From Acidobacteriota bacterium (GTDB taxonomy: Bacteria; Acidobacteriota; Thermoanaerobaculia; Gp7-AA8), in the NCBI GenBank assembly GCA_019244185.1, contig JAFATB010000023.1, positions 320,001 through 384,000 on the forward strand: a DNA stretch of 64,000 nucleotides. The letters run 5' to 3'. Position numbers and translations under genes: made by a program. Below are positions 1 to 38,787 of this stretch, piece by piece. Positions within the stretch are counted from its first letter, which is position 1. Each line of letters starts with the position of its first letter. The notes under the pieces are model-generated. The model searched no databases, was not told where the DNA came from, and saw nothing but the letters and a program-made list of their open reading frames with translations.

Positions 1-1308
1 TTCAGCGACATCACCGGCATCGCCGCGATTCTCACCGCGGTGGGCTTGCTGCTGTGGCGCGACGAGACGTTCCTCGCCGGCGCGGCGATGCTCGGCGTCG
101 CCGCGGCGATCCGTCCGCAGGCGATGCTCTTCGGCGTCGCACCGTTTCTGCTCGCGGCGTGGCGCGCGCGCCAGCGTCCCGGACGCGTCGTCATCGCGGG
201 CGTGCTTGCCGCGACGATCGTCGTCGCGAGCTACGCCGGCGCGGCCGCGGCGTCGTCTTCGTTCACCGGCTACCGCGACTCCGTGCGTGGCGTGAAGACG
301 TGGGTGCGCTCGGTCGATGCGTTCACGAATCCGGCGCGTCCGCAGCTGCTCTCGCTCGCCGCGGACTTTTTCGTGCACCCGATGGGCGGCGGCCGCATCG
401 CGTGGGTGCTCGTCGCGCTCGCGTGCATCGCGCTCGTCGACCGACGCTCGTGGCTCGTCGTCGCGATCTTCGCGCCGTTCGCGGGTTTCGCGTGGCTGAT
501 GCTCGATCACTACTCGATCCATCGCTATGCGACCGCGTACGTCGCGCTGCACGCGCTGCTCGCCGCGCGCGGCGCGCAAGTCGTGCTGCGCCGCCGCGCG
601 CTGCAGGTCGCGGCGATCGCGCTGATCGCGTTGCGGTACGCGTGGTGGACCGCGCCCGCGCTCGCAACGGCGCGCACGACGCCGTCGCCGACGTACGCGG
701 GGATGCAATGGTTGCGCGCGCAACGCGTCCCCATCTACGTGCACGGCTCGCTCGGTCCGTTCGCGAATTACTTCCTGTACGATCGCCCGGTGCTCGTGCT
801 GCGCGACCTGACGACGCTTCCGCCGGCCGCGCCGCCGCACGCGCTCGCCGCGACGGAAGGCCTCGTCGTCGGCGCGCGCGCCACGTTCGTGCGGCCGTTC
901 GGCCGCCTCTACGAGCTCGCACGGCAGCGCTACTTCACCGTTTCCGTGCTGCCGCTTTCGAACGTCTGGCAATTCGGCGACGGCTGGTACGACGCGGAAG
1001 AAGACCCGCCGCAGATGTGGCGCTGGATGAGCGCGCGCAGCGTGACCACACTTCCCGCCTTGCGCGCCGCACGCGGACGCTTGACGCTCGCGCTCGCGGC
1101 ACCGAAGCACGAGCAGGCCGACGTCGAGGTGCGCTTCAACGGCGTGCTGCTGGAGCGCTTCCACTGCACGGATATCGCGGTGCCGCGGTCGTGGAGCGTC
1201 CCGTCGCGCGCCTCGAATACGCTCGTGCTCGCGGCGTCGCCGGCGCGGCGCATGGGCAACGATCGGCGCGTGCTCTCCGTACAACTGGTCGGGCTCGGAT
1301 GGGAATGA
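1..1308 (+). CDS. GT-C-fold membrane glycosyltransferase-like protein (DUF2723-like), paralog 1, 5'-truncated by window edge
   Basis: Frame 1 is open from base 1 (FSDITGIAA..., matching GFSDIP/AFSDVP in the next two genes). Multiple TM helices. C-terminal FGDGWY..E...WRWM and D.R.L domain shared with the paralogs. Confidence 0.7.
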   Translation, partial: FSDITGIAAILTAVGLLLWRDETFLAGAAMLGVAAAIRPQAMLFGVAPFLLAAWRARQRPGRVVIAGVLAATIVVASYAGAAAASSSFTGYRDSVRGVKTWVRSVDAFTNPARPQLLSLAADFFVHPMGGGRIAWVLVALACIALVDRRSWLVVAIFAPFAGFAWLMLDHYSIHRYATAYVALHALLAARGAQVVLRRRALQVAAIALIALRYAWWTAPALATARTTPSPTYAGMQWLRAQRVPIYVHGSLGPFANYFLYDRPVLVLRDLTTLPPAAPPHALAATEGLVVGARATFVRPFGRLYELARQRYFTVSVLPLSNVWQFGDGWYDAEEDPPQMWRWMSARSVTTLPALRAARGRLTLALAAPKHEQADVEVRFNGVLLERFHCTDIAVPRSWSVPSRASNTLVLAASPARRMGNDRRVLSVQLVGLGWE

Positions 1309-3068
1309 CGGAACGCCAGCGGCGGATCCTGCTCGTCGTCGCGATCGCGGTGGCGCTGACGCGGTTCCTCGCCGTCGCGCACAACCTCTTCGACTGGGAC
1401 GAGGGACTTTTCTGCGGCGGCGTCGTCGAATACGACGTCGCGAACCATCATCCGCATCCGCCCGGCTATCCGCTCTTCATCGCCGCCGCGAAGCTCGTGC
1501 ACCTCATCGGCGTTCCGCCGTTTCGCTCGCTGCAGACGATCGTCGTCCTCGGCGCGCTCGCGCTGTTTCCGGCGACCTTCTTCTTCGCGCGAGCTCTCGG
1601 CTTCGCGTTCGCGACCTCCGTCGCCGGCGCCGCGATCTACTGCTTTCTGCCGAACGTCTGGATTTACGGCGGCACCGGCTTCTCCGACATTCCCGCGACC
1701 GCGATCGGCTTCGCCGCCTGCGCGCTCCTGCTGCGCGGACGCGGCGACCGCCGCGCGTACATTCTCGGCGCGATCGTGCTCGGCATCGCCGCGGGCTTTC
1801 GTCCGCCGAATCTCTTCATCGGCGCGGTGCCGGCGCTGGTCGCCACGTGGTCGCGCATCCGCGCGCGCGACTGGCGCGCCGTCGCCACCGCGCTCGTCCT
1901 CGGCGGCGCCATCGCCGGCGCGAGCTACGCCGGCGCCGCGCTCGCATCGAGCTCCATCGACGGCTATCTCGGCGCGCTCCGCTCGCAAAGCAAGTGGGTC
2001 CACGACATCGACTCGTGGCACAACCCGCATCGCGCGCCGCTCTCCGTCGTCGCGCGGATGTTCTTTCTCTGGCCGGTCGAACAGCACGCGCAGATGTTCG
2101 GCCTGGTCTGTCTCGCCATCATCGGCCTGCTCGGCGCGCTGTTCGCCGCGAACAGCCGCCGCGCGGCGCTCCTCGTCGTGGCGACGTTCGTGCCGCTCGC
2201 GATCACGACGTGGCTGAACCTCGACGTGCAGGCCGCGGGACGCTACGCGATTCCGTATCTCGTCGTGCACGCGCTGCTCGCCGCGGAAGGCTTGCGCTGG
2301 ATCACACTGCAACGCACCGGCGTGCAGGCGGCGCTCGCCGGCGCGATCGTGATCGTCTTCTGCGTCTGGACCTGGCCCGCGCTCACGCTGCAGCGCCGCC
2401 GCGACGCGCCGCCGGTCGCCGCGCTGAACTGGATTCGACGCAACGTTCCGCGCGACGCAAAGGTCTACGTCCACGGCGGACTCGGGCCGCTCGCCGACGT
2501 CGTGCTCCACGATCGCCTGCCGATGTACTTCGACTCGCTCGACCAGATCTCGCTGACGAACGGCGACGCGTGGGTGGTCGATCTCAACATCGCGCCGGGC
2601 GCGCACAACTTCGTCTGGCCGCGCCAGCAGCTCTGGAAGATTCTGCGGCGCCGCAACTTCGAGGCGTCGATCAGCCGCCTCTCCGCGCACCTCGTCTTCG
2701 GCAGCGGCTTCTATCCGCAGGAGGGGAGCGGGCTGGACATCTTTCAGTGGATGGGGAAAGAAGGGCGCATCGAGATGCCGGCGTTCCACGGAGACGGCCG
2801 GCTGCATCTCCGGACCTACGTGCCGATCAACACGCTGCCGGCGCATCCGACCATCGAGGTCTGGATGAACGGCAAATTGCTCGATCGCTTCCTCGGCGAC
2901 CGCGACGAGATCGACCGCAGCTGGATCGTGCCGTCGCGCGCCGGCGCGCCGAACGAGCTGCGCATCACCACCAGCGGCGTGGTCAATCCGAAAGCGCTCG
3001 GCAAGTCCGACGACGCGCGCGACCTCGGCCTGCGCATCGACGTGCTCTCATGGACGCCGGTGCGCTGA
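1305..3068 (+). CDS. GT-C-fold membrane glycosyltransferase-like protein (DUF2723/TMEM260-like), paralog 2
   Basis: ATG at 1305 overlaps the upstream TGA (ATGA). Motifs FDWDEGLF and HPHPPGYPLF, many TM helices, C-terminal soluble domain ending DARDLGLRI. Confidence 0.75.
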   Translation: MTERQRRILLVVAIAVALTRFLAVAHNLFDWDEGLFCGGVVEYDVANHHPHPPGYPLFIAAAKLVHLIGVPPFRSLQTIVVLGALALFPATFFFARALGFAFATSVAGAAIYCFLPNVWIYGGTGFSDIPATAIGFAACALLLRGRGDRRAYILGAIVLGIAAGFRPPNLFIGAVPALVATWSRIRARDWRAVATALVLGGAIAGASYAGAALASSSIDGYLGALRSQSKWVHDIDSWHNPHRAPLSVVARMFFLWPVEQHAQMFGLVCLAIIGLLGALFAANSRRAALLVVATFVPLAITTWLNLDVQAAGRYAIPYLVVHALLAAEGLRWITLQRTGVQAALAGAIVIVFCVWTWPALTLQRRRDAPPVAALNWIRRNVPRDAKVYVHGGLGPLADVVLHDRLPMYFDSLDQISLTNGDAWVVDLNIAPGAHNFVWPRQQLWKILRRRNFEASISRLSAHLVFGSGFYPQEGSGLDIFQWMGKEGRIEMPAFHGDGRLHLRTYVPINTLPAHPTIEVWMNGKLLDRFLGDRDEIDRSWIVPSRAGAPNELRITTSGVVNPKALGKSDDARDLGLRIDVLSWTPVR

Positions 3069-4723
3069 CGCCGCGCGAGCGGCAGGCGTTCGTGCTCGCG
3101 GCGCTCGCCGTCGCGGTCACGCGTTTCCTCGCGATCTCGAAGACGCTCTGGGACTGGGACGAGGCGCTCTTCGCGCTCGCTGTGCGCGACTACGACGTCA
3201 CGCGTTACCACCCGCAGCCGCCCGGCTTCCCGCTGTTCATCGGCGCCGCGAAGCTGCTCGTGCAACTCGCGCACGTCGACGGCTTCCGCGCGCTGCAGAC
3301 GCTGACCGTGCTGTCCTCGCTGTTCGTCTTTCCCGCGGCGTTTCTACTCGCACGTGCGCTGCGGATGCCGTTCTTCGCGTCGATGGCCGCGGCGCTGTTG
3401 CTCGCATTCGCGCCGAACGTCTGGTTCTACGGCGGCACCGCGTTCAGCGACGTGCCGTCGATGGTGCTCGTGCTCTTCGCCTGCGCGCTGTTGCTGCGCG
3501 GGTCGACGCTCGGCGGCGCGACGCTCCTCGGCATCGCCGCCGCGATTCGTCCGCAGAGCGTGCTCATCGCGTTCGTGCCGATGCTGCTCGCGTTCCGCAC
3601 GCGCCGACGCACGGCGTTACAGGGTGCGGCCATCGTCGCGGCGATCGTGATCGTCAGCTACGGCGCGGCGGCGTACGCGAGCGGCGGCTGGGACGCGTAT
3701 CGCGCCGTGCTCGCGCGGCACGAGCAGTACATCCGCGGCGTCGATTCGTTTCTCAGTCCGATCCGGCCATCGCTGCTGCGCGTCGCCGACGACTTCTTCT
3801 TCTGGCCGTATCGAGCGCCGCTGCTGAACGTCGCCATCGTCGCCTTGGCGCTCGCCGGACTCACGCGGCGCCGCGCGTGGCTCGCCGTGGCGATCTTCGC
3901 GCCGTTCGCGCTCTTCGCGTGGCTCTATCTCGACTTCCACAGCGTCAGCCGGTTCTCGATCGGCTACGCGCCGTTGTACGCGCTGCTCGCCGCCGAAGGA
4001 ATCGACCTGACGCGCCGCGCGCGCGGCTTCGTGCTCGCCGCGCTCGTCGGATATGCAGTCGTGCTGATGATGCCGGCGCTCGCGGTCGTGCATCGCACGC
4101 CGTCGCCGCCGGTCGCGGCGATGACGTTCGTGCGCGCGCGCGCGTCGCGGGCGTCGAGCGTGCTGCTCGTCGACGAACGGCTCGCCGCGCACGCGGAGCT
4201 TCTCCTCGCCGATTACGACCGCGAGCTTGTCGCGCTCGCCGCCACCGCCCGCCCGCCCGCGACGATGCACGCGCGCGCCGACGTGCTGGTCGTGCGCGAA
4301 GACGCTGCCGCCGGCGGCGTCGCGTTCATGCGCGCGCGGGCGCCGCTCGCGTCACTCGTGCGTCCGCGCTACTTCGAGACGTCCGTCGCGAACGCGCGAC
4401 GCATCACGTTCGGCGACGGCTGGTACGGCGAGGAAGGCGCGCCGCGCGCGCCGTGGCGGTGGATGGGGCGCGCGTCGCGACTCGAGATTCCCGCCGGCGC
4501 GTCGCGCATCGACATCCGCTTCGCGGTGCCGCTCCCGACGACGATCGTGATCCGCGCGGACGATCGCATCATCGACCACATCACGACGACGCCCGCGACG
4601 GTCGAGCGCACGTGGCATGTCGCGAACGCGCGCACGCTCACGATCGAGACGAGTGCAATCGCGCACGGCCCGCACGATCCGCGCGAGCTCGGGCTGCGCC
4701 TCGATGAGCTCGAGGCGCAGTGA
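3050..4723 (+). CDS. GT-C-fold membrane glycosyltransferase-like protein (DUF2723/TMEM260-like), paralog 3
   Basis: Starts MDAGALTPRER. Motifs WDWDEALF, HPQPPGFPLF, PNVWFYGGTAFSDVP, FGDGWYGEE, DPRELGLRL. Collinear with paralog 2. Confidence 0.75.
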   Translation: MDAGALTPRERQAFVLAALAVAVTRFLAISKTLWDWDEALFALAVRDYDVTRYHPQPPGFPLFIGAAKLLVQLAHVDGFRALQTLTVLSSLFVFPAAFLLARALRMPFFASMAAALLLAFAPNVWFYGGTAFSDVPSMVLVLFACALLLRGSTLGGATLLGIAAAIRPQSVLIAFVPMLLAFRTRRRTALQGAAIVAAIVIVSYGAAAYASGGWDAYRAVLARHEQYIRGVDSFLSPIRPSLLRVADDFFFWPYRAPLLNVAIVALALAGLTRRRAWLAVAIFAPFALFAWLYLDFHSVSRFSIGYAPLYALLAAEGIDLTRRARGFVLAALVGYAVVLMMPALAVVHRTPSPPVAAMTFVRARASRASSVLLVDERLAAHAELLLADYDRELVALAATARPPATMHARADVLVVREDAAAGGVAFMRARAPLASLVRPRYFETSVANARRITFGDGWYGEEGAPRAPWRWMGRASRLEIPAGASRIDIRFAVPLPTTIVIRADDRIIDHITTTPATVERTWHVANARTLTIETSAIAHGPHDPRELGLRLDELEAQ

Positions 4724-4735
4724 ACGCGTGCAAGC

Positions 4736-6703
4736 TTATGGGCGGAACTCGATCGACTGCGGGAACCACGTGCGCACGTGCTTCCCGTCCTTCACCGGCG
4801 GCGTGAAGCGTGTGGAGCGGATGGCGCGCATCGCGGCCTCGTTGAGGCCGAAGCGCGGCTCGCCGCGCAGCACCTTCACGTCCAGCACTTCGCCGTTCTC
4901 GCCGATGAACGCGCTGAGGATGATCGTCGCCGAGACCTTCTGCTGCGCGGCCATGGCCGGATACATCGGCCGGATCGCGCGCGTGGGACGCGGCAGCGTG
5001 TCGAGCGCCGAAACGTCGACGACGTCGCCCTCGTGGACGCCCGCCGTCTGCGCGGCCGGCGCCTGCGTCACGACCTGCTGCACCGGCGCGGACGACTGCG
5101 TCTGCGCGGGCGCGGCCGGCGTCGGGTCGACCGGCGTCGTGCGCGCGGGCGCCGATTCACGCCGCTGCTGCTGATCGAGCTGCGCCGCGGACAGCGACGG
5201 ACGGTCGTCGCTCACCGCCGGGGCGGGCGTCGACGATGCGACGCTGACCGGCGGCGCCGTGACCACCGGCGCGTTCTTCGACTGCTTCTGCCGCAGCTCC
5301 GCGTTGAACTGGTTCTGCAGCTTCATCATCTCTTCGTTCATCTTCCGCCGCACCGCGTCCTCGAACGCCTTCTTCTGCGCCTCGGCATCCGTGGTCGCCG
5401 GGGCCGCGGGCGTGGCGGTGGACGTCTGCGGCGACGCCGACGCGACGACCGGCTCGGAGATGATGCGGTGCTGCGCGGGCTGCTGCTGCGCGGTCACGCC
5501 CGGGAGCACCTGCGCGGTGCTGAGGGGCGCGGGGGCCGCGGCCGTCGTCGAGTGCTTCGACATCATGTAGTACGCGCCGAGACCGACGCCGGCGACCACG
5601 AGCGCGGCGGCGGCGACGAGCGGCAGCTTGCTCTTCGACTTCGGCGCGTCAGCCGAGGCGAACATCGACGGCGCGGGGGACGGTTCGTAGGCAGGCGCGG
5701 GAACGGCGACCGGCTTCGGCGCCTCGAGATACGGCAGGACGTTGACCTTCGACTCCTTGTCGCGGTCGAGCGCTTCGGCTTCCAATTCTTTCTTCAGCAG
5801 ATTGCTGAGATAGAACGCGAGATTGAACGTCGTCGCCGAATACTTGCCGCCGTGCGCGAGGCCGGAGATGGCTTGCTTCATCTCGCCGATCGACGCGTAG
5901 CGCATCGACGGATCGATGTTGAACGACTTGTCGAGGACGACGCGGATGTCGTCGGGCACCGGCGCGCCGGTGAGCGTCTTCGCCGCGCGCACGGCTGCGC
6001 CGAACGCGCTCGCCGTCGCCGCGTCGGGCGGCTCCTGGCCGGTGACGAGGAGGAACAGGATCGCGCCCATTGAATAGACGTCGGCGTTTTTCACCGGCTG
6101 GGCGGCATTGCGCGATTCCGGACAGAAGTAACGCCCGATCTCCGCCGCGACGCGCGCGTCCTGCAGCGAAGCGAGCATGCCGGCGCCGAGTTGCTGGCCC
6201 GCGACGCGGATCTCGCCGTCGTCGCTGATCCAGATCATCTGCGGCAGCAGCGCGCCGTGCGAGAGACGTCCGCCGCCGCTGCGCAGGTCCGCGGTCGTCG
6301 CGAGAGACAGCGCGACTTTCTCCGCGATCACGATGGCCTGATCGATCGGCAGCGGATTGGGAGGCGTGTCTTTGCCGCCGCGGCCGCGGTCGATGATGTG
6401 GCGCAGCGAACGTCCGCCCGCGTAATCCCACGCGACGAACGGCACGCCGTCGGCGACGCCCGCGACCTGCTCGCGCGCGAACGAAGTGCCGGTGAGCTGC
6501 GGCAGGATCTGCGCCGCCGCTTCCGCGCTCGCGGTGAGCGCCGCGCGGTTGCCGCCGGTGAGGCGCCGCAGCGCAACCGTCGGTCCGAGCTGCGCGCCGT
6601 CGATGCGCCCGGCGCGCCAAAGCTCGCCGATGGCGTCCGTTTCGAGTTTCTTGAAAAGGATGTACGGACCGAACGAATCGTACGGCTTGTTGCGCGCAGC
6701 CAT
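4736..6703 (-). CDS. Ser/Thr kinase-like (pseudokinase) domain + TM + Pro/Ala linker + TonB C-terminal domain
   Basis: Kinase-like start FGPYILFKKL..GELWRA, plus YFCPE and ADVYSMGAILF. HRD and DFG are absent. One TM (LPLVAAAALVVAGVGLGAYY). TonB_C signature PMYPAMAAQQKVSATIILSAFIGENGEV...LNEAAMRAI...FTPP..DGK.V. Confidence 0.8.
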   Translation of the reverse strand: MAARNKPYDSFGPYILFKKLETDAIGELWRAGRIDGAQLGPTVALRRLTGGNRAALTASAEAAAQILPQLTGTSFAREQVAGVADGVPFVAWDYAGGRSLRHIIDRGRGGKDTPPNPLPIDQAIVIAEKVALSLATTADLRSGGGRLSHGALLPQMIWISDDGEIRVAGQQLGAGMLASLQDARVAAEIGRYFCPESRNAAQPVKNADVYSMGAILFLLVTGQEPPDAATASAFGAAVRAAKTLTGAPVPDDIRVVLDKSFNIDPSMRYASIGEMKQAISGLAHGGKYSATTFNLAFYLSNLLKKELEAEALDRDKESKVNVLPYLEAPKPVAVPAPAYEPSPAPSMFASADAPKSKSKLPLVAAAALVVAGVGLGAYYMMSKHSTTAAAPAPLSTAQVLPGVTAQQQPAQHRIISEPVVASASPQTSTATPAAPATTDAEAQKKAFEDAVRRKMNEEMMKLQNQFNAELRQKQSKNAPVVTAPPVSVASSTPAPAVSDDRPSLSAAQLDQQQRRESAPARTTPVDPTPAAPAQTQSSAPVQQVVTQAPAAQTAGVHEGDVVDVSALDTLPRPTRAIRPMYPAMAAQQKVSATIILSAFIGENGEVLDVKVLRGEPRFGLNEAAMRAIRSTRFTPPVKDGKHVRTWFPQSIEFRP

Positions 6704-6771: not shown

Positions 6772-7215
6772 TCAACGCGCGGGCGAACGCGACTGTTCGC
6801 TCCACGTACAGAGCGTCTGCACGTCCGCGGGCGAGAGTTTCGCCTGGCGATGCACGAGCGTGTACGAGCCGATCGGCATGTCGCCGTGCTGCACCTGATC
6901 GCACACTTCCTCGAGCTTGCGACTCTGCTTCTTCGCCGTGTACGTCGCAAAGACCGACGCGTTCAGCTCGCGCCGTCCTTCGTTCACGTGATTGACGAGC
7001 CACCACGAGAGCGGCGAGATGTTCGTGTACCACGGCCAGCGCGTCTCGTTGGAATGGCAGTCGCGGCACGAGCGGTCGAAGATCGCCTGCACGTTCGCCG
7101 GCATCGTCAGCCGCTTCGCCGGATCGACGGGCGGATTCGTGCGCGCGGGGCGGATGAACTGCGCGACGACAACGAGAATCACGAGCACGAGCAGGATGCG
7201 TTTCAACATCGTCAT
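6772..7215 (-). CDS. Heme-binding domain protein (c-type cytochrome, Haem_bd-like)
   Basis: N-terminal membrane anchor, CRDCH heme motif followed by SNETRWPWY, and MP..Y...H distal motif. Confidence 0.8.
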   Translation of the reverse strand: MTMLKRILLVLVILVVVAQFIRPARTNPPVDPAKRLTMPANVQAIFDRSCRDCHSNETRWPWYTNISPLSWWLVNHVNEGRRELNASVFATYTAKKQSRKLEEVCDQVQHGDMPIGSYTLVHRQAKLSPADVQTLCTWSEQSRSPAR

Positions 7216-8300
7216 TTCGCCTGCGGCTGCTGCTGTTGTTGCTGTTGCGCGCGACGGCGGTCGCGGAAGTACTGGCGCTGATAGATCTCGACGTTGCGGT
7301 TGTGATCCGCGGCGTTCGTCGCGAAGACGTGCGAGCCGTCGTTGCGCGCGACGAAGTACAGATACGGCGAGGTCGCGGGTGCGGCGGCGGCGCGCAGCGA
7401 TGCAAGTCCCGGATTCGCGATCGGACCGGGAGGCAAGCCCGGAAAGCGGTACGTGTTGTACGGCGACGCGATCTGCAGATCCGCCTTGTGGATGTTTCCG
7501 TCCCAGCGTCCGGCGAGCTTGATCGCGTAGATCACCGTCGGGTCCGCGCCGAGGAGCATGTGGCGGTGGAGGCGGTTGACGTACACCGACGCGACGATCG
7601 GACGCTCCTGCGGCAGCCGCGCCTCGGTCTCGACGATCGACGCGAGCGTCACCGTCTGGTGCACGTCGAGTCCCGTCGCGATCAGTGCGAGCTCGCCGCC
7701 CCAGTGCTTGCGGAAGTTCGCGACCATCGCGCGCACGATCGTCGTCGCCGGCGTGCCGGGATCGAACTTGTACGTGTCAGGGAAGAGGTAGCCTTCGAGC
7801 GACTCCGCGTTCGGCGCGATGTCGCGGATGAGGTCCGGATCGCCCGTCGCCTTCTTCCACTCCGCCTCGGTGCCGAGCTTCTCGTCGGCGAAGAGCTTTC
7901 CGATGGCGAAGCGGTCGAGCCCTTCGCGCACGGTGACAGTCTTCAGGATCACGTCGCCGCGAATGAGCTTGTCGAGCACGTCGACCGGCGCGAGCGGTTT
8001 GTCGAACTGATAGACGCCCGCTTTCAGCGAGTCGCGCCCGCGGAATATCTTCATGTAGACGAGCGGGATCCACTCGTCGCGCACGACGCCGTCGCGCTGC
8101 AGTTGCTGCAGGATCGTCGCCGTGCGCTGGCCGCGCCGCACTTCGACGCGTTTCGCCGCGCCGGTCCAGCCCTGATACGGCGTGCGCAGCGCTCGCCAGA
8201 AGAACCAGCTGCCGGCGATGCCGAGGATGATCGCGAAGATGAGGATCGTGAAGAGCGACTGCGCGTATTTGCGGCAGCCGCGGCGCTGCCGGCGTGCTAT
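7212..8300 (-). CDS. mltG: Endolytic transglycosylase MltG (probable ATA start at 8300)
   Basis: LEGYLFPDTY, LASIVETE, VYVNRL, L.ADPTVIY, SPYNTY..PGLPPGPIANPG, YLYFVA. The frame extends 53 codons beyond the listed ORF to include the basic N-terminus and TM anchor. Confidence 0.9.
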   Translation of the reverse strand: MARRQRRGCRKYAQSLFTILIFAIILGIAGSWFFWRALRTPYQGWTGAAKRVEVRRGQRTATILQQLQRDGVVRDEWIPLVYMKIFRGRDSLKAGVYQFDKPLAPVDVLDKLIRGDVILKTVTVREGLDRFAIGKLFADEKLGTEAEWKKATGDPDLIRDIAPNAESLEGYLFPDTYKFDPGTPATTIVRAMVANFRKHWGGELALIATGLDVHQTVTLASIVETEARLPQERPIVASVYVNRLHRHMLLGADPTVIYAIKLAGRWDGNIHKADLQIASPYNTYRFPGLPPGPIANPGLASLRAAAAPATSPYLYFVARNDGSHVFATNAADHNRNVEIYQRQYFRDRRRAQQQQQQQPQAK

Positions 8301-8713
8301 GGCGTCCTCCGCTGCTCACGCGTGCGCGCGTCGAGCCACGACTGCAGGATCACGGCGGCGGCGTGCATGTCGATGTCCTTCTGTGCCTCGCGTCGATTGC
8401 GGCCCGCGGCGCGCAGTTGTTCCATCGCTTCCACCGTGGAGAGACTCTCGTCCCAGAGCACGACCTCTTTGCAGGTTCGCTGCCGCAGCGTGTCCGCAAA
8501 CGCGTGGAACTTCTCCTCGGACGACGACGCGTGCATGCGGCGCGGGATGCCGAGAACGAACGTCGCGGCGTCGAGCTCGCGCGCGAGACGCTCGAGCTTC
8601 GCCACGACGTCGCCTTCATTCCGCAGCACGGAATGCGGCGTGGCCACGACGCCGGAGTCGCTGACGGCGATGCCGATGCGGCGCGCGCCGAGGTCGATGC
8701 CGATCACGGACAC
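8297..8713 (-). CDS. ruvX: YqgF/RuvX pre-16S rRNA nuclease
   Basis: GIDLGARRIGIA, WDESLST, IDMHAAAVILQSWL. The ruvX-mltG order is typical. Confidence 0.9.
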   Translation of the reverse strand: MSVIGIDLGARRIGIAVSDSGVVATPHSVLRNEGDVVAKLERLARELDAATFVLGIPRRMHASSSEEKFHAFADTLRQRTCKEVVLWDESLSTVEAMEQLRAAGRNRREAQKDIDMHAAAVILQSWLDARTREQRRTP

Positions 8714-8762: not shown

Positions 8763-9917
8763 ATGAAAAACTTCAACCTCGACGCGATTCTCGAGGCGAT
8801 GCTGAAGATCTCGGATCGCGTGTCCGATCTGAACTTCTCCGTCGGCCGGCCGCCGCAGGTCGAAGTCGACGGACAGCTCGCGCCGGTGAACTTCCCCGGC
8901 CTGCCGCGACTCACGCCGTTCCAGACGGAGATCATCGCCATGCACATGCTGCGCGGCGACCGCGAGCTGACGCGCACGCTGATGATGAACGGCAGCGTCG
9001 ACCTGTCGTACTCGATCCCGCAGAAGACGCGCTTCCGCGTGAACATCTTCTCGCAGCGCGGCACGTACGCGATCGTGCTGCGCGTGATCCCCGAGGGCAT
9101 TCCGACGCTCGAGTCGCTGAAGATGCCGCGCGAGCTGTTCAACGTCGGCAAGCTGAAGAACGGCATCGTGCTCGTCACGGGGCCGACCGGCTCCGGCAAG
9201 TCGACGACGCTCGCGGCGATCATCAACCAGATCAACCACGAGCAGGCCGTGCACATCATCACCATCGAGGATCCGGTCGAGTACATGCACCGGCACGTCA
9301 AGTCGACGGTGAACCAGCGCGAGGTCGGCTCCGACACGAAGACCTTCTCGCTCGCGCTGCGCGCCGCGCTGCGTCAGGCACCGAAGGTGATCCTCATCGG
9401 CGAGATGCGCGACGTCGAGACGATCGAGATCGCGATGGAAGCTGCGGAGACGGGACACCTCGTGCTCTCGACGCTGCACACGATCGACGCGGCGAAGACG
9501 ATCGACCGCATCGTGGGCGTCTTTCCGAAAGATCAGGAGCCGCAGGTGCGCACGCGGTTCTCGCAGTCGTTCCGCTACGTCATCTCGCAGCGCCTGCTGC
9601 CGAAAGTCGGCGGCGGACGCGTGGCCGCGCTGGAGATTCTCAAGTCGACGATGCGCACGCGCGACTACGTGCTGAAAGGCGAGACCGAAGGGCGCTCGCT
9701 CACCGACGCGATGCACGACGGCCAGGTCGACGGGATGCAGGCGTTCGACGACGAGATCGAGAAGCTGTGGAACGACGGCGTGATCTCGAAAGAGACCGCC
9801 CTTGCGTACGCGACGAATCCGACGAACCTCGCGCTGCGCATGACCGACGAGCCGACGGGGATTCCCGCCGCGGGTGCGAGCGACGACGGCGACTCGATGC
9901 TGTCGCTGCTGGAGTAG
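8763..9917 (+). CDS. pilT: PilT/PilU family type IV pilus ATPase
   Basis: SDL.F..G.PP, Walker [48 protein letters not shown]. Confidence 0.9.
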   Translation: MKNFNLDAILEAMLKISDRVSDLNFSVGRPPQVEVDGQLAPVNFPGLPRLTPFQTEIIAMHMLRGDRELTRTLMMNGSVDLSYSIPQKTRFRVNIFSQRGTYAIVLRVIPEGIPTLESLKMPRELFNVGKLKNGIVLVTGPTGSGKSTTLAAIINQINHEQAVHIITIEDPVEYMHRHVKSTVNQREVGSDTKTFSLALRAALRQAPKVILIGEMRDVETIEIAMEAAETGHLVLSTLHTIDAAKTIDRIVGVFPKDQEPQVRTRFSQSFRYVISQRLLPKVGGGRVAALEILKSTMRTRDYVLKGETEGRSLTDAMHDGQVDGMQAFDDEIEKLWNDGVISKETALAYATNPTNLALRMTDEPTGIPAAGASDDGDSMLSLLE

Positions 9918-9919
9918 CC

Positions 9920-10543
9920 ATGATCCGCATCACGTGCACGAGCTGTCAGAAACCGCTCTCGCTCGACGAGACCAAGCTGCCGATGCGCGAGGTCTCGTTT
10001 CCGTGTCCGGTCTGCAAGGCGAAGCTGACCGTCGACCGCAGCAAGCTCGAAGGCGCACAGCCGCCGAGCGGCGACGCGCCCGACACGCATGCCTCGCACG
10101 GCGCGCACGACGACGATCACGAGAACGACTTCGGCGCGAAGGCGGTGATCGTCGGCAAGGACGATCCCGCGCTGCGGCAGGCGGCGAAGCTGGTCGGCTT
10201 TCTGCCGATCGTGCACGCCGAGCCGGCGCGCGCGCGCGACTACCTCATGCAGGAGTCGCCGCAGCTGGTGTTCATCCATCCGCCGCAGCTCACGCCGCCG
10301 CCGCTCGACGGCATGGCGCCGGTCATCGCGCTGCCGCCGGTCGATCGCCGCAAGACGTTCCTGGTGCTGGTCGCCGACAACCTGCGCACGCTCGACGGCA
10401 ACGCGGCCTTCCTCTACGGCGTGAACCTCGTCGTGGCGACGAAGGACCTCGGGCAGTTCCCGCAGATCTACCGCGATGCGCACGCGCACCACGAGCGGTT
10501 CTATGCGAGCGTGAACGCGGTGACCCGCGAGAAGTCGGCCTGA
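9920..10543 (+). CDS. Zinc-ribbon domain protein with degenerate receiver-like C-terminal domain
   Basis: CTSC...CPVC at the N-terminus, alpha/beta C-terminal domain, starts 2 nt after the pilT stop. Confidence 0.65.
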   Translation: MIRITCTSCQKPLSLDETKLPMREVSFPCPVCKAKLTVDRSKLEGAQPPSGDAPDTHASHGAHDDDHENDFGAKAVIVGKDDPALRQAAKLVGFLPIVHAEPARARDYLMQESPQLVFIHPPQLTPPPLDGMAPVIALPPVDRRKTFLVLVADNLRTLDGNAAFLYGVNLVVATKDLGQFPQIYRDAHAHHERFYASVNAVTREKSA

Positions 10544-10571
10544 GGCGGGGAGGGGGCGACGGGCTGCCGAG

Positions 10572-11048
10572 TTACTGCGCCTGCAGCCCGTCGGGGTACT
10601 GCACGAACTGCCCGTTCATGAAGATGATGTCGCAGTCGAACTTGTGCGTGCCGCCGCCGGTGACGCTGGCATCGGGAACGCCGTCGCGGCCGTACGAGCG
10701 GATCATGTAGGACGCGCCTTCGGCGTCGACCGCGAACTGCAGGTCGTGGCGCCAGCCGTCGGTGCGGATCATTTCTTTGGAGAACGTCGGCACGAGGATG
10801 TTTTCCATCATTTCGATCGTCATGGGCGTCGTGCAGCAGATCGACAAGCCGGCGCCCGAGTACTTGCCGATGTCGGTCGCCCGCGCTTCCCACGCCGTCG
10901 CCGCGGCACGGATGTCGGCCATCGTGCGCTTCTGACGCGAACGCTGCATCACGGTGATGAGGTTCGGGATGGCGATCGCCGCGAGGATGCCGATGATCGC
11001 GACGACGATCAGCAGTTCGATCAGCGTGAAGCCTCGTGTTCTCTGCAT
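10572..11048 (-). CDS. Type IV pilin (prepilin N-terminal cleavage/methylation domain), paralog 2
   Basis: MQRTRG/FTLIELLIVVAIIGILAAIAIP class III signal peptide. Confidence 0.9.
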   Translation of the reverse strand: MQRTRGFTLIELLIVVAIIGILAAIAIPNLITVMQRSRQKRTMADIRAAATAWEARATDIGKYSGAGLSICCTTPMTIEMMENILVPTFSKEMIRTDGWRHDLQFAVDAEGASYMIRSYGRDGVPDASVTGGGTHKFDCDIIFMNGQFVQYPDGLQAQ

Positions 11049-11068
11049 GCGTGAGCTCCCGTCAAGTA

Positions 11069-11096
11069 CGACGGGCGCTGTCTCCAGCGCCCGTCG
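11069..11096 (-). terminator. Stem-loop between the two pilin genes
   Basis: CGACGGGCGCTG-TCTC-CAGCGCCCGTCG 12-bp stem with only a weak U tract. Confidence 0.55.
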
Positions 11097-11122
11097 CATC
11101 GCAGTTGCTGTTGCGAAGGTCC

Positions 11123-11608
11123 TTACTGGACCTGCACACCTTCCGGATACACGACGAAGCTGCCGTTCGAGAAGACGATGTCGCAGTCGAACTTGGTCGT
11201 CGGACCGGCGGACTCGGAATCGTTCGACTTGTTCTTGCCGTACGACTCGATCGAGTACGACTGACGGTCGGTGCTCACACCGCCCGCGTAGTTCGTACCC
11301 CAGCCGTCCTTCGTCGGGACCTGCTTGATGTAGGTCGGCGAGAGGATGCCCGGCAGGGTGTTGGCGACGTAGTCCGCCCCCGTGCTCGGCCACGTCACGG
11401 TCGCGCCGGCGGCGCCGTACTCGTTGACGTCCGTTGCACGCGCTTCCCACGCGGTGGCGCAGCTGCGCATGTCGGCCATCGTTCTCTTCTGACGCGAACG
11501 CTGCATCGCGGTCAGCAGGTTCGGAATGGCGATCGCTGCGAGAATGCCGATGATCGCGACGACGATCAGCAGCTCGATCAGGGTGAAACCTTTTTGCTTC
11601 CTGGTCAT
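11123..11608 (-). CDS. pilA: Type IV pilin, probable major pilin
   Basis: MTRKQKG/FTLIELLIVVAIIGILAAIAIP, strong RBS AAAGGAGG, sigma54 promoter upstream. Confidence 0.85.
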   Translation of the reverse strand: MTRKQKGFTLIELLIVVAIIGILAAIAIPNLLTAMQRSRQKRTMADMRSCATAWEARATDVNEYGAAGATVTWPSTGADYVANTLPGILSPTYIKQVPTKDGWGTNYAGGVSTDRQSYSIESYGKNKSNDSESAGPTTKFDCDIVFSNGSFVVYPEGVQVQ

Positions 11609-11638
11609 AGAAGCCCTCCTTTGAGGACTTCCACTAAG

Positions 11639-11654
11639 GCAATCGCAACGCCAA
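11639..11654 (-). promoter_or_regulatory. Sigma54 -24/-12 promoter of the pilin genes
   Basis: Minus strand TTGGCGTTGCGATTGC (GG-N10-GC). Confidence 0.7.
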
Positions 11655-11761
11655 GGCGCACCAGAACGCAACCGACTGACCGCGCAGAGTTTACTACCGG
11701 CCGGGGCGGTGCCGGAGGAGCGGTTCTGACACATTTGCGTACGGGTTGGTGACAAATATCG

Positions 11762-27314: not shown

Positions 27315-29114
27315 ATGACGGAACGGGCGAGCGGTTCGCGCTCCCGCAGCCTTGCGCCGGGGTTTCTCGTCGACGGGAAGTACGAGATCGTCGGACTTCT
27401 CGGAGCCGGAGGCATGGGCGAGGTCTACAAAGCGCGCCACGTGCACCTCGGCGCGTTCCGCTGCATCAAGGTCATGAAGCCGAGCCTCATGGCCAACGAG
27501 ACCTACAAGCAGCGCTTCCTGCGTGAGGCGCGCCTCGCGACGCAGATCCACCATCCGAACGTCGCGGCGATGCACGACTTCTCGATCCTCGGCGACGGCA
27601 CGAGCTACATGGTCGCGGAGTTCATCGACGGCACGACCGTGCGCCAGTGGGAAACCGCGAACGGCCGCTTCCCGCTCGCGCTCGCCGTCGAGGTGGCCGT
27701 GCAGGTTCTCAGCGGACTCGATCACCTCCACCGCCGCGGTCTCCTGCATCGCGACATCTCCGCCGACAACGTGATGCTGTCGTTCGACACTGACGATCGC
27801 CTGCTCGTGAAGATCATCGACCTCGGCGTTGCGAAAGACGTCTCGCGCGGCCAGGATCCCGACGCGAACCCCGACACGACGCAGGCCGGCGTGATGATCG
27901 GCAATCCGAAGTACATGTCGCCCGAGCAGCTCGGCGAGCTCGAACCGGGCGAGACGCTCGACGGCCGCACCGATCTCTACTCCCTCGGCATCGTGCTGTA
28001 CGAGATGCTGACCGGCGTGCCGCCGTTCTCCGCGCGCACGTCGAACGGCTACATCATCAAACATCTCACCGAGGCGCCGCCGACGTTCGCGGATGCAAAC
28101 CCGGGCCTCGATCTTCCCGCGGGACTCGAGGCCGTCGTGCAGCGCGCGCTCGCGAAACATCGCAATCAGCGCTTTCCGAGCGCGCGCGCCTTCTCGGATG
28201 CGCTGTCGCGCTACGCGTCGCCGGCGCAGGAAGGCTTTCTGCGTACCGAAGTGCCGACGCCCGGCACCGGCGCGGAAGAGGCGTGGCACAAGGCGACCGC
28301 CATCGACACGTACAACGCGCTGCGCGACTTTCGCGCGCGCTTTCCCGCGCATCGCGTGGAGGAAGCGACGAACGCGCTCGCCGAGCGACTCGGCTTCGAC
28401 ACCGCCGCGGCGATCGACACCGAAGACGCGTGGCTCGACTATCTCGAACGCTGGGGCGAAGACCGGCACGCCGCGCAGGCGCGCGAGCGGCTCGAGCACG
28501 TGAAGGCGCGCGAGGCGACGGCGTACAGCGTCGCGGTGGAGATGAAGAGCGCCGCCGCGTGGCGCGCGTACCTCGAGGAGTTTCCCGACGCGCGGCGCAG
28601 CGGCGAGGCGGAGTCGCATCTGCGCGAGGCGCTCGCGTTCGAGGAAGCGCGCGGCGTCGACACCGTCGCGGCGTGGGGACTCTTCCTCCTCAACTATCCG
28701 GCGGGCCTGCACGAGTACGCCGCGCGCGAGCGGCTCGAAACGCTCGAAGCCGCCGACGAGCGCGCGTGGGAAGACGCAAAAGCGCAGACCACGCCGGCGG
28801 CGCTGCACGCGTATCTGCAGGGACGTCCTGGCGGCAAGTACGCGGGCGACGCGGCGCGCGCGCTGGGACGCATGGCCATCGTCGAAGGCGACTTCGACGC
28901 CGCGTGGGAGAAGGGCACCGTCGCCGCGTGGGACGAGTACATCGCGGCGCATCCCGACGGCGCGCGCATCGACGATGCACGCACTTGCCGTCAGGAAGCG
29001 CAGGAGTACGAGCTCGCCGCGAGCATGAACACGAAGGTGATGTGGCGCGCGTTCCTCAAGGCGTGGCCGCAAGGGCGGCATCGCCTCGACGCCGAAGTGC
29101 GGCTGCGCAGCTGA
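27315..29114 (+). CDS. Ser/Thr protein kinase with C-terminal helical repeats
   Basis: GAGGMGEVY, IKVM, HRDISADN, IIDLG, YMSPE, DLYSLG. About seven W..YL..YP.G-type repeats. No TM. Confidence 0.92.
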   Translation: MTERASGSRSRSLAPGFLVDGKYEIVGLLGAGGMGEVYKARHVHLGAFRCIKVMKPSLMANETYKQRFLREARLATQIHHPNVAAMHDFSILGDGTSYMVAEFIDGTTVRQWETANGRFPLALAVEVAVQVLSGLDHLHRRGLLHRDISADNVMLSFDTDDRLLVKIIDLGVAKDVSRGQDPDANPDTTQAGVMIGNPKYMSPEQLGELEPGETLDGRTDLYSLGIVLYEMLTGVPPFSARTSNGYIIKHLTEAPPTFADANPGLDLPAGLEAVVQRALAKHRNQRFPSARAFSDALSRYASPAQEGFLRTEVPTPGTGAEEAWHKATAIDTYNALRDFRARFPAHRVEEATNALAERLGFDTAAAIDTEDAWLDYLERWGEDRHAAQARERLEHVKAREATAYSVAVEMKSAAAWRAYLEEFPDARRSGEAESHLREALAFEEARGVDTVAAWGLFLLNYPAGLHEYAARERLETLEAADERAWEDAKAQTTPAALHAYLQGRPGGKYAGDAARALGRMAIVEGDFDAAWEKGTVAAWDEYIAAHPDGARIDDARTCRQEAQEYELAASMNTKVMWRAFLKAWPQGRHRLDAEVRLRS

Positions 29115-38326: not shown

Positions 38327-38787
38327 AGCTCGGCGGAGAGCGCGGCCGCATCGAGCTTCTCGTGCGGCACGGTCTGCAGGTTCACGCGCTCGTGCGGCGA
38401 GGTGGGGCTCACGAGCTGGCTGAGATCTTCGGTGGGCGGCGGCGGCACCGGCTGATCGAACGGCTCGGCCAGCGGCGCGGCTTCGTTCTCCGTCGGCAGC
38501 TCCTCGGAGAAGCGCCCGTACGTGTTGCCCATGCGCAGCTTCGCGCCGTGCGTCAGCGGAGCGACGCGAATGCGTTTGCCGTTGACGTACGTGCCGTTCG
38601 CGCTCGCGAGATCGTGCAGGACGAAGAAGCCGCGCTCGAACACGATCTCCGCGTGATGGCGCGAGACCTTCGGGTCGCGGAGGATGATGTCGTTGCCGGG
38701 ATCGCGTCCGAGCGTGAACGGACGATGCGTCTGCAGCCGGTAGCTTTTCTCCGCGCCGTCGAGGCCGACGAAGAAGATTTTCGCCAT
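38308..38787 (-). CDS. FHA domain protein (stops just after an A10 run)
   Basis: LGRDPGNDI.L.DPKVSRHHA, DLASANGTYVNG. Ends ELKKKVE*. Confidence 0.88.
   Translation of the reverse strand: MAKIFFVGLDGAEKSYRLQTHRPFTLGRDPGNDIILRDPKVSRHHAEIVFERGFFVLHDLASANGTYVNGKRIRVAPLTHGAKLRMGNTYGRFSEELPTENEAAPLAEPFDQPVPPPPTEDLSQLVSPTSPHERVNLQTVPHEKLDAAALSAELKKKVE

Follow-up and report, generated by a model that had tools for sequence, protein, structure and literature searches.

The gene at positions 4736-6703 of the window, by which we refer to the whole stretch of 64,000 nucleotides analyzed here (contig JAFATB010000023.1 of the Acidobacteriota bacterium assembly GCA_019244185.1), is predicted to encode a single-pass inner-membrane protein that carries a dead protein-kinase domain inside the cell and a TonB-type docking domain (TonB_C) in the periplasm. 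The explanation that we favor, with about as much belief as doubt, is that this protein is a non-catalytic, single-pass trans-envelope adaptor that is not powered by ExbB-ExbD, and whose most likely partner is an active paralog encoded in the same genome. Bacterial pseudokinases have hardly been studied, and none of the seven families treated in the accessible text of a recent atlas and review is described there with a TonB domain. The elements that are new here are the sister relation between the dead and the active families, their co-occurrence in genomes, the result regarding the membrane histidine of TonB, and the class limit of a linkage to mltG.

Reading frame and domain architecture

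The window has a G+C content of approximately 70%, with long open reading frames in several frames, and because DNA of this kind holds such frames, outside support is needed for any one of them. For the frame under study this support comes from homologs: of 8000 candidates scored in a 90%-clustered protein collection, 843 matched the product at E <= 0.001, and the best 120 homologs of the 655-residue protein were all full length, with 61-87% identity. These matches indicate that the frame is genuine and not a chance product of high G+C content. Most of those 120 homologs are named ‘TonB family protein’, with Thermoanaerobaculia given as the organism, a label that inflates counts of TonB and may hide a signaling protein.

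In the full-length AlphaFold2 (AF2) model, a kinase fold is followed by two juxtamembrane helices (residues 292-317), a transmembrane (TM) helix (361-381) and the TonB_C domain (556-655), joined by linkers that are modeled with low confidence, appear disordered, and are rich in Ala, Pro, Thr, and Gln. This order of pseudokinase, TM helix, Ala/Pro/Thr linker and TonB_C had been proposed in an initial annotation of this DNA, and both Pfam (57.7 bits for TonB_C) and the full-length model bear it out.

A kinase fold without catalytic residues

Motif equivalences were read from an alignment with the active kinase of the same genome that is described below. ETDAIG (residues 21-26) is aligned under the Gly-rich loop GxG; VALRR (43-47) under VAIKK, with an Arg at the place of the beta3 Lys; HGALLPQM (149-156) under HRDVSPQN; AGQ (168-170) under DFG; YFCPE (192-196) under APE; DVYSMG (208-213) under D-x-x-x-x-G; and R268 under an Arg of the active kinase. 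The initial annotation had quoted these motifs and their degenerate forms, all of which were recovered in place from the translation. The window protein thus lacks a Gly-rich loop (the region reads LETDAIGE), the beta3 Lys, the Asp and Asn of the HRD motif and the Asp of DFG, and according to the alignment the alphaC Glu is also gone.

The profile searches that had been suggested as a check gave a divided answer. TonB_C is clear, Pfam kinase models remain below threshold on the window protein (PK_Tyr_Ser-Thr, E 0.0077; Pkinase, E 0.065), and the NCBIfam model PknB_PASTA_kin matches residues 82-397 with an E value of 1.4e-14; among distant relatives, 62 of 66 have a Pfam kinase match at E <= 0.001. 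Modeled by AF2 from 104 sequences, residues 1-330 form a bilobal kinase fold (predicted local distance difference test score, pLDDT, of 96.2; predicted template modeling score, pTM, of 0.94), with juxtamembrane helices at 292-302 and 304-317, and its best Foldseek matches in the Protein Data Bank are the kinase domains of PknB, PknA, and PknI, each with probability 1.00. The doubt raised at the outset, namely that the N-terminal domain might not adopt a kinase fold, is removed by these results. As modeled, the cytoplasmic domain keeps the protein-kinase fold in the absence of the catalytic residues, and canonical phosphorylation appears to be ruled out.

The degenerate motifs are themselves conserved. 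In 18 close relatives they are invariant, as exemplified by H149-G150, P154-Q155, and G169-Q170-Q171. An exhaustive comparison of residues 1-330 with 1.84 billion cluster representatives returned 141 at E <= 1e-30, each standing for a cluster at 50% identity, and 19168 at E <= 0.001, indicating a large family. A motif table was drawn up for approximately 125 of the representatives listed, all at least 400 residues in length; neither in these nor in 11 homologs from other classes, down to approximately 25% identity, was a GxGxxG motif, an HRD Asp or a DFG motif found. The catalytic loop of the tabled representatives reads H-G-[A/F/L], the place of DFG is occupied in most by GQx or GFE, and most retain the Arg as well as the APE and D-x-x-S-x-G motifs. 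Arg replaces the beta3 Lys in the majority of members, and the Lys itself is kept in four of the 11 out-of-class homologs (L122, L123, L124, and L129). Within the alignment of 104 sequences, R30 is invariant and H149-G150 nearly so; the juxtamembrane signature TTFNLAF[Y/F] is also nearly invariant, with F293 occupying one of only four invariant columns and L295, A296, and L302 being conserved in at least 90% of sequences. Conservation is highest in the N-terminal domain, which shares 76-78% identity with the same three relatives for which the full-length value is 65-66%.

These conservation data refute the notion of a decaying kinase gene, recently inactivated and heading for loss, for which the missing catalytic residues are the sole argument: the substitutions recur across the phylum and lie in the most conserved domain, the frame is intact in the listed loci, and the family forms one old clade, so that this explanation can be practically dismissed. 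Orthologs retaining HRD or DFG, which the initial annotation would have taken as a sign of recent decay, were not found among the relatives examined. Since the losses of the Gly-rich loop, of the HRD Asp and of DFG occur in every relative examined, the gene is a conserved pseudokinase, and the sequences point to a family that is old and long-lived. The proposal of a catalytically dead scaffold is, in consequence of the retained fold and of the loss of catalytic residues throughout the family, well supported.

SelO, SidJ, WNK, and ULK4 are proteins that were first called pseudokinases and that display non-canonical ligand binding, catalysis or switching. The window protein could similarly be an atypical enzyme or nucleotide sensor, with non-canonical binding of ATP or of another ligand, a different reaction, or a conformational switch; the invariance of R30, the near-invariance of H149-G150, and the presence of Arg (in some members Lys) at the beta3 position would suit such a role, as would the alternative binding reported for the DLHK, DYD, and ULK4 families in the accessible part of PMC12599244. 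We regard it as very doubtful, however, since the losses comprise the Gly-rich loop, the Asp residues of HRD and DFG and the aligned alphaC Glu, most of the other invariant residues are structural (the APE Glu, R268), and families that lack all three motifs are nearly always devoid of ATP binding, as far as the same part of that source goes.

In the Acidobacteriota, one of the most abundant phyla in soil, the N-terminal domain was matched at E <= 1e-20 in 86 of 401 genomes sampled evenly across the phylum (50 of 228 when counted by genus), or approximately one fifth, in frames of mostly 550-840 residues; this tally includes genome G024, and that of the active kinase given below includes both G024 and G152, the two being marked as unpublished and entering into no other result. 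TonB_C accompanies the pseudokinase domain in 65 of 66 distant representatives and in all 11 out-of-class homologs (24-32% identity). By structure, the nearest rows of the ESM Atlas are two clusters in which TonB_C is present in 97-98% of the members and which are commonest in Acidobacteriota.

The membrane helix, the spacer and the TonB C-terminal domain

The periplasmic end of the protein is an ordinary TonB_C domain, matched by PF03544 over residues 578-654 (E 1.7e-15; 57.7 bits, for a cut-off of 24.6) and by TIGR01352 (E 2.2e-12; 47.1 bits, for a cut-off of 27.1), and modeled by AF2 with a pLDDT above 90. It is separated from the membrane by a spacer of approximately 175 residues, a TonB-like length, which contains a predicted helix of 38 residues (440-477; pLDDT 83-90). 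Within this helix E448, E458, K461, L462, and Q463 are invariant in the 18 close relatives, and in the active paralog a helix-like stretch aligns to it. The sequence of the TM helix is not conserved within the pseudokinase family.

In TonB, the S-x3-H motif of the TM helix is needed for coupling to ExbB-ExbD, and in Escherichia coli its His is the sole functionally important side chain of that helix. When the most hydrophobic 19-residue window was taken as the TM segment in 222 full-length family members, His was present in one and Asn in none; both residues are also missing from the TM helix of the window protein. S/A-x3-H occurs in the TM helix of six TonB_C frames encoded in this genome, including both TonBs that lie beside exbD pairs (on contig C18 and at 40 kb of contig C26); the TM helix of the active paralog is also devoid of this signature. 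Seven ExbD matches were found in the genome, none of them near the pseudokinase gene.

The resemblance to the TonB of the ExbB-ExbD-TonB system thus lies in the N-in single pass, the long periplasmic spacer and the canonical TonB_C, while the differences consist of a cytoplasmic domain of 325 residues, the missing TM His, the lack of adjoining exbBD genes, and a spacer that is rich in Ala, Thr, and Gln and holds a helix in place of the Pro-Glu/Pro-Lys rod of TonB. A true TonB, that is, an energy transducer driven by ExbB-ExbD that serves TonB-dependent transporters and carries a regulatory cytoplasmic domain, would account for the canonical TonB_C, for the length of the spacer, for the Plug-domain receptors of the genome and for the names given to the homologs. 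It is nevertheless improbable, considering that the membrane His is virtually missing from the family while the exbD-adjoining TonBs of the genome have it, that no exbD lies near the gene, and that the TM sequence has not been conserved. The genome encodes 13 frames with TonB_C and 20 frames of Plug-domain receptors, and because the TonB_C of the window protein is ordinary and such receptors are abundant, docking on a TonB box, without transduction of force, is plausible from the sequences.

An active sister kinase

The partner that we favor is a 958-residue paralog located 153 kb from the window gene. It is composed of a receiver domain (REC), a Pkinase domain (148 bits) with intact VAIKK, HRDVSPQN, DFG, and APE motifs, one TM helix, a periplasmic helix-like stretch, and a TonB_C domain. 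Among the TonB_C domains of the genome, that of the paralog is nearest to the one in the window protein (41.6% identity over 101 residues, with the best canonical TonB at 35.9%); an alignment of the two proteins (E 1e-22) extends from the TM helix as far as the C-terminus, and the juxtamembrane motif of the paralog, SADLAIYM, is of the same kind as TTFNLAFY. Active REC-Pkinase-TM-TonB_C kinases, which are as yet uncharacterized proteins of Acidobacteriota, are therefore similar to the window protein in kinase fold, juxtamembrane motif, single TM helix, periplasmic helix and TonB_C, and differ from it in having VAIK, HRD, and DFG as well as an N-terminal receiver, neither of which the window protein has.

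Orthologs of the kinase domain of this paralog are set apart in the match list, with E values down to 1.1e-83 and the next match at 1.7e-66; the threshold of E <= 1e-83 was chosen after this gap had been seen. By reading of the match table, an ortholog is present in 137 of the 401 genomes. All 16 orthologs sampled across the phylum keep HRD and DFG, and in 12 of them both the receiver and TonB_C are matched at E <= 0.001. Kinase domains were placed in a maximum-likelihood tree (LG+C20, 61 rows, quick search), in which 19 pseudokinases and 17 active TonB_C kinases join in a single clade that excludes 25 other Hanks kinases from this genome, with a support of 100 in the Shimodaira-Hasegawa-like approximate likelihood-ratio test (SH-aLRT); within it the pseudokinases form a single clade (SH-aLRT 100) on a long stem (0.91). 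The simplest history compatible with these sequences would be that a kinase-TM-TonB_C gene was duplicated once, long ago, and that one of the copies then lost catalysis.

Two other partners had been put forward in the initial annotation, and neither held up. The active kinase at 27315 of the window is one of approximately 35 Hanks kinases of the genome (40 Pfam matches), lies more than 20 kb away without linkage, and groups in the tree with the ordinary kinases rather than with the pseudokinase. The FHA protein (window approximately 38527-38715) is one of 17 FHA matches, also more than 20 kb away, with no link to the gene. On the basis of sequence the active paralog is the better candidate, and the broader suggestion that the window protein relays the state of outer-membrane receptors is a reasonable inference.

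The two families also tend to be found together: both genes are present in 84 of the 86 genomes that bear the pseudokinase (the exceptions being G041 and G151), so that the range of the pseudokinase is almost nested inside that of the active kinase. Being lineage-bound, the two families provide, by this co-occurrence, weak evidence for a pairing. A further observation comes from family f41, where the three active orthologs sampled (L139, L140, and L148, from genomes G139, G036, and G311) have all lost both REC and TonB_C, their C-terminus being a membrane helix. The pseudokinases of two f41 genomes, L125 (G139) and L126 (G311), have kept TonB_C, and in this family the dead copy alone would reach into the periplasm.

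The surroundings of the active paralog were recorded as well. Genes for Peripla_BP_2, FecCD, and ABC_tran proteins lie directly downstream on the same strand, and a Peripla_BP_2 gene follows the active ortholog in three of 16 genomes sampled from other families (L134, L137, and L138). Upstream, in divergent orientation, are genes for Rho and for an outer-membrane barrel that has CarboxypepD_reg and matches Plug weakly. This context hints at a link to TonB-dependent uptake.

Proposed role in the cell envelope

In the mechanism that we propose, the kinase-fold domain would reside in the cytoplasm and, without performing canonical phosphorylation, serve as a regulatory or scaffolding partner of the active REC-Pkinase-TM-TonB_C kinase. 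The spacer of approximately 175 residues would allow TonB_C to reach the outer membrane, where it would most likely dock on the TonB box of an outer-membrane barrel through beta-strand pairing, or, less likely, on the cell wall. Events in the outer envelope could in this manner be coupled to cytoplasmic Ser/Thr phosphorylation by way of the active kinase, and in Thermoanaerobaculia the pseudokinase may be expressed together with ruvX and mltG, which would point to envelope growth as one context. The analysis itself establishes the architecture, the absence of catalytic residues and of the membrane His of TonB, the strong conservation, the sister relation to the active family and the nested co-occurrence; what TonB_C binds, whether the active kinase is its partner and which way signals travel are elements that we infer. 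If such a pairing exists, it bears on how Gram-negative bacteria could pass information between the outer membrane and Ser/Thr phosphorylation while using neither ExbBD energy nor sigma/anti-sigma factors.

Several observations weigh against this proposal. The active kinase is present without the pseudokinase in 53 genomes, and the co-occurrence is confounded by shared descent, both families being found in the same lineages. The two genes are adjacent in none of the loci examined. The tree has as its outgroup this genome's kinases only and was obtained by a quick search, and the long stem of the pseudokinases may mislead. R30 and H149, near the position of the lost catalytic center, would be compatible with nucleotide binding or other chemistry. 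The neighbors of the pseudokinase gene vary by class (mltG, ComEC, BamD-LysM, FadL, GroEL), so that no single pathway is indicated.

A more specific version, which we consider quite unlikely, would be a heteromeric receptor that spans the envelope and is composed of the pseudokinase and its active sister. The TonB_C domains of the two would capture the TonB box exposed by a substrate-loaded TonB-dependent transporter, and receptor occupancy at the outer membrane would be turned directly into Ser/Thr phosphorylation in the cytoplasm. Such a receptor would fit both the repeated position of the active member before a Peripla_BP_2-FecCD-ABC importer and the restriction of TonB_C to the pseudokinase in f41. 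If it existed, surface signaling of the FecA-FecR-FecI type would have a kinase-based equivalent in which the pseudokinase is the allosteric half, in the manner of the receptor kinase-pseudokinase pairs of eukaryotes.

Comparison with known systems

In a search of the literature, no report of a TonB_C fusion to a kinase or pseudokinase was found. Precedents exist for parts of the architecture. In the Agl-Glt gliding machine of Myxococcus xanthus, GltJ (AgmX) carries cytoplasmic interaction domains, one TM helix and a TonB-like C-terminus, and couples the trans-envelope machine to cytoplasmic regulators, according to the accessible parts of PMC11135422 and PMC8262864. As described there, GltJ shows by precedent that a TM-TonB_C protein can carry interaction domains in the cytoplasm, with the difference that these are ZnR and GYF domains and not a kinase fold; Pfam detects neither domain in the window protein, and no Glt genes were found among its neighbors (ruvX, mltG, pilT, and glycosyltransferase-like genes).

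Bacterial Ser/Thr pseudokinases have been sorted into seven families (bioRxiv 10.1101/2025.01.12.632604; PMC12599244, in their main texts). The nearest to the window protein is GLW, whose members are, in the accessible text of PMC12599244, membrane-associated proteins that lack all three motifs and in which a TM helix follows the kinase domain; they have G-L-W in place of HRD and L or W for the beta3 Lys, and are mainly proteobacterial. By that description, the window family differs in its H-G-[A/F/L], in mostly having Arg at the beta3 position, and in being acidobacterial. The terms ‘TonB’ and ‘Acidobacteri’ are absent from the main texts of both papers, the supplements of which could list the family under another name. 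The same part of PMC12599244 places the pseudokinase of MviN in family ActPs3.

The pseudokinase of the MurJ-like protein MviN of Mycobacterium tuberculosis, which acts together with PknB and FhaA, offers the example of a membrane-bound pseudokinase in cell-wall synthesis under an active Hanks kinase. It differs from the window protein in that it sits on a lipid II flippase-like protein of Actinobacteria, has VALT, and lacks both HRD and TonB_C. PASTA kinases (PknB/Stk1) are also distinct: the NCBIfam match to their model spans the kinase part only, at 54 bits versus a cut-off of 450, and no PASTA domain was detected in the window protein by Pfam. In the FecA-FecR-FecI system, a single-pass inner-membrane protein reads the state of a TonB-dependent receptor and passes the signal to the cytoplasm; FecR, however, binds the N-terminal signaling domain of the receptor, has no TonB_C, and controls an ECF sigma factor, with no kinase involved.

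Gene neighborhood and features of the locus

The coordinates of the features discussed here are collected in Table 1. According to the initial annotation, the pseudokinase gene follows ruvX, mltG and the gene of a heme protein, and these neighbors are found in that order, all on the same strand. The only promoter-like site of the region, identified by consensus match alone, lies at 8749-8722 (-), just upstream of ruvX.

Table 1. Features of the pseudokinase locus and of the active paralog (window coordinates unless a contig is given)
Feature	Position	Strand	Basis and remarks
Pseudokinase gene, whole	4736..6703	-	655 codons and stop; pseudokinase, TM, spacer, TonB_C; open reading frame and translation, homolog search
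Hanks-type pseudokinase domain, predicted cytoplasmic (residues 1-325)	5729..6703	-	AF2, Foldseek, NCBIfam PknB_PASTA_kin, replaced catalytic motifs
Juxtamembrane helices (residues 286-317), family signature TTFNLAFY	5753..5848	-	column conservation in 104 sequences, AF2
Single TM helix (residues 361-381), without the His of canonical TonB	5561..5623	-	AF2 helix, hydrophobic window
Conserved helix, predicted periplasmic (residues 440-477), within Ala/Pro/Thr/Gln-rich spacer	5273..5386	-	AF2, invariant residues
TonB C-terminal domain, predicted periplasmic (residues 556-655; Pfam match 578-654)	4739..5038	-	PF03544, TIGR01352, AF2
ruvX, first gene of the ruvX-mltG-(haem_bd)-pseudokinase string	8297..8713	-	PF03652, E 5.4e-33
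mltG (YceG family)	7212..8300	-	PF02618, E 7.2e-80; first canonical start 8141 (7212-8141)
Heme-binding-domain gene (Haem_bd), between mltG and the pseudokinase gene	6772..7215	-	PF14376, E 3.5e-42
Active REC-Pkinase-TM-TonB_C paralog	G000:C26:478820-481696 (L132:11821-14697)		958 aa; 153 kb from window gene

Conservation of this arrangement was analyzed in 80 close loci (49-67% identity), all of which are, by title, from Thermoanaerobaculia or unclassified Acidobacteriota. In 73 of them mltG lies upstream of the pseudokinase gene, on the same strand and adjoining it, and ruvX is present in 71; of the seven loci without mltG, five have fewer than 600 bases upstream. Among more distant loci of the same class (33-38% identity), eight of nine have mltG within 3 kb. 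In the 11 loci from other classes, neither ruvX nor mltG was found within 8 kb. Conservation of the mltG neighborhood, which had been suggested as a check, holds within the class and fails outside it, and the linkage to ruvX-mltG appears, from these loci, to be limited to Thermoanaerobaculia. The neighbors in the 11 out-of-class loci include ComEC in four (L125, L126, L127, and L131), BamD with a LysM protein in two (L124 and L129), FadL in two (L122 and L123), GroEL in two, and PEGA in L121; envelope genes are common among them, in a count made without a control.

This neighborhood is the principal argument for regarding the protein as a tether of the envelope or coordinator of the cell wall, with TonB_C as a static strut on peptidoglycan or on an outer-membrane protein, and a partnership with MltG that couples the processing of glycan strands to the outer layers, the paralog playing no part. 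Its support consists of the position of the gene 3' of ruvX-mltG in the close loci and near mltG in most of the distant loci of the class, and of the envelope genes (BamD with LysM, FadL, PEGA, ComEC) that often adjoin it elsewhere. On the other side, the mltG linkage ends at the class boundary, the strict retention of a kinase fold is left unexplained, and ruvX-mltG is an old pair in many bacteria, so that the pseudokinase gene may be a mere passenger. Taken together, these points make the role of tether unlikely; the adaptor paired with the active kinase is the explanation that we retain.

The heme-binding gene, which overlaps the mltG stop by 4 bases, was rejected as a functional partner: tblastn gave no match to it in any of the 80 related loci, and on account of this absence it is considered a recent insertion in this genome.

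An observation regarding mltG concerns its start. The reading frame continues 5' of the first canonical start at 8141 and there encodes the membrane anchor of the product (QSLFTILIFAIILGIAGSWFFW); between this anchor and the upstream stop at 8318-8316, the codons ATG, GTG and TTG are all missing. The apparent start is a conserved ATA (8300-8298) that overlaps the ruvX stop TAG (8299-8297) in the sequence ccATAG. Among relatives (loci L002-L081), the codon at this place is ATA in 65 of 66 loci and ATC in one, and 48 of the 66 have no canonical start upstream of the anchor. These sequences suggest either a non-canonical start or coupling by termination and reinitiation.

On the opposite strand, the first part of the window (1-4723, +) is occupied by three tandem paralogous genes for large multi-pass membrane proteins, the last of which runs toward the pseudokinase gene, the two stops being separated by 12 bases. 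The two that were scanned have no Pfam match at E <= 0.001; by eye, the proteins resemble glycosyltransferase family 39/83 enzymes. Homologs of these genes follow the pseudokinase gene in 66 of the 80 related loci. On the other side, at 8766-11755 and divergent from ruvX, are genes for a PilT-type ATPase, a zinc-ribbon protein, and two type IV pilin-like proteins (pseudopilins), and these pilT-side genes are conserved beside ruvX in 55-67 of the 80 related loci.

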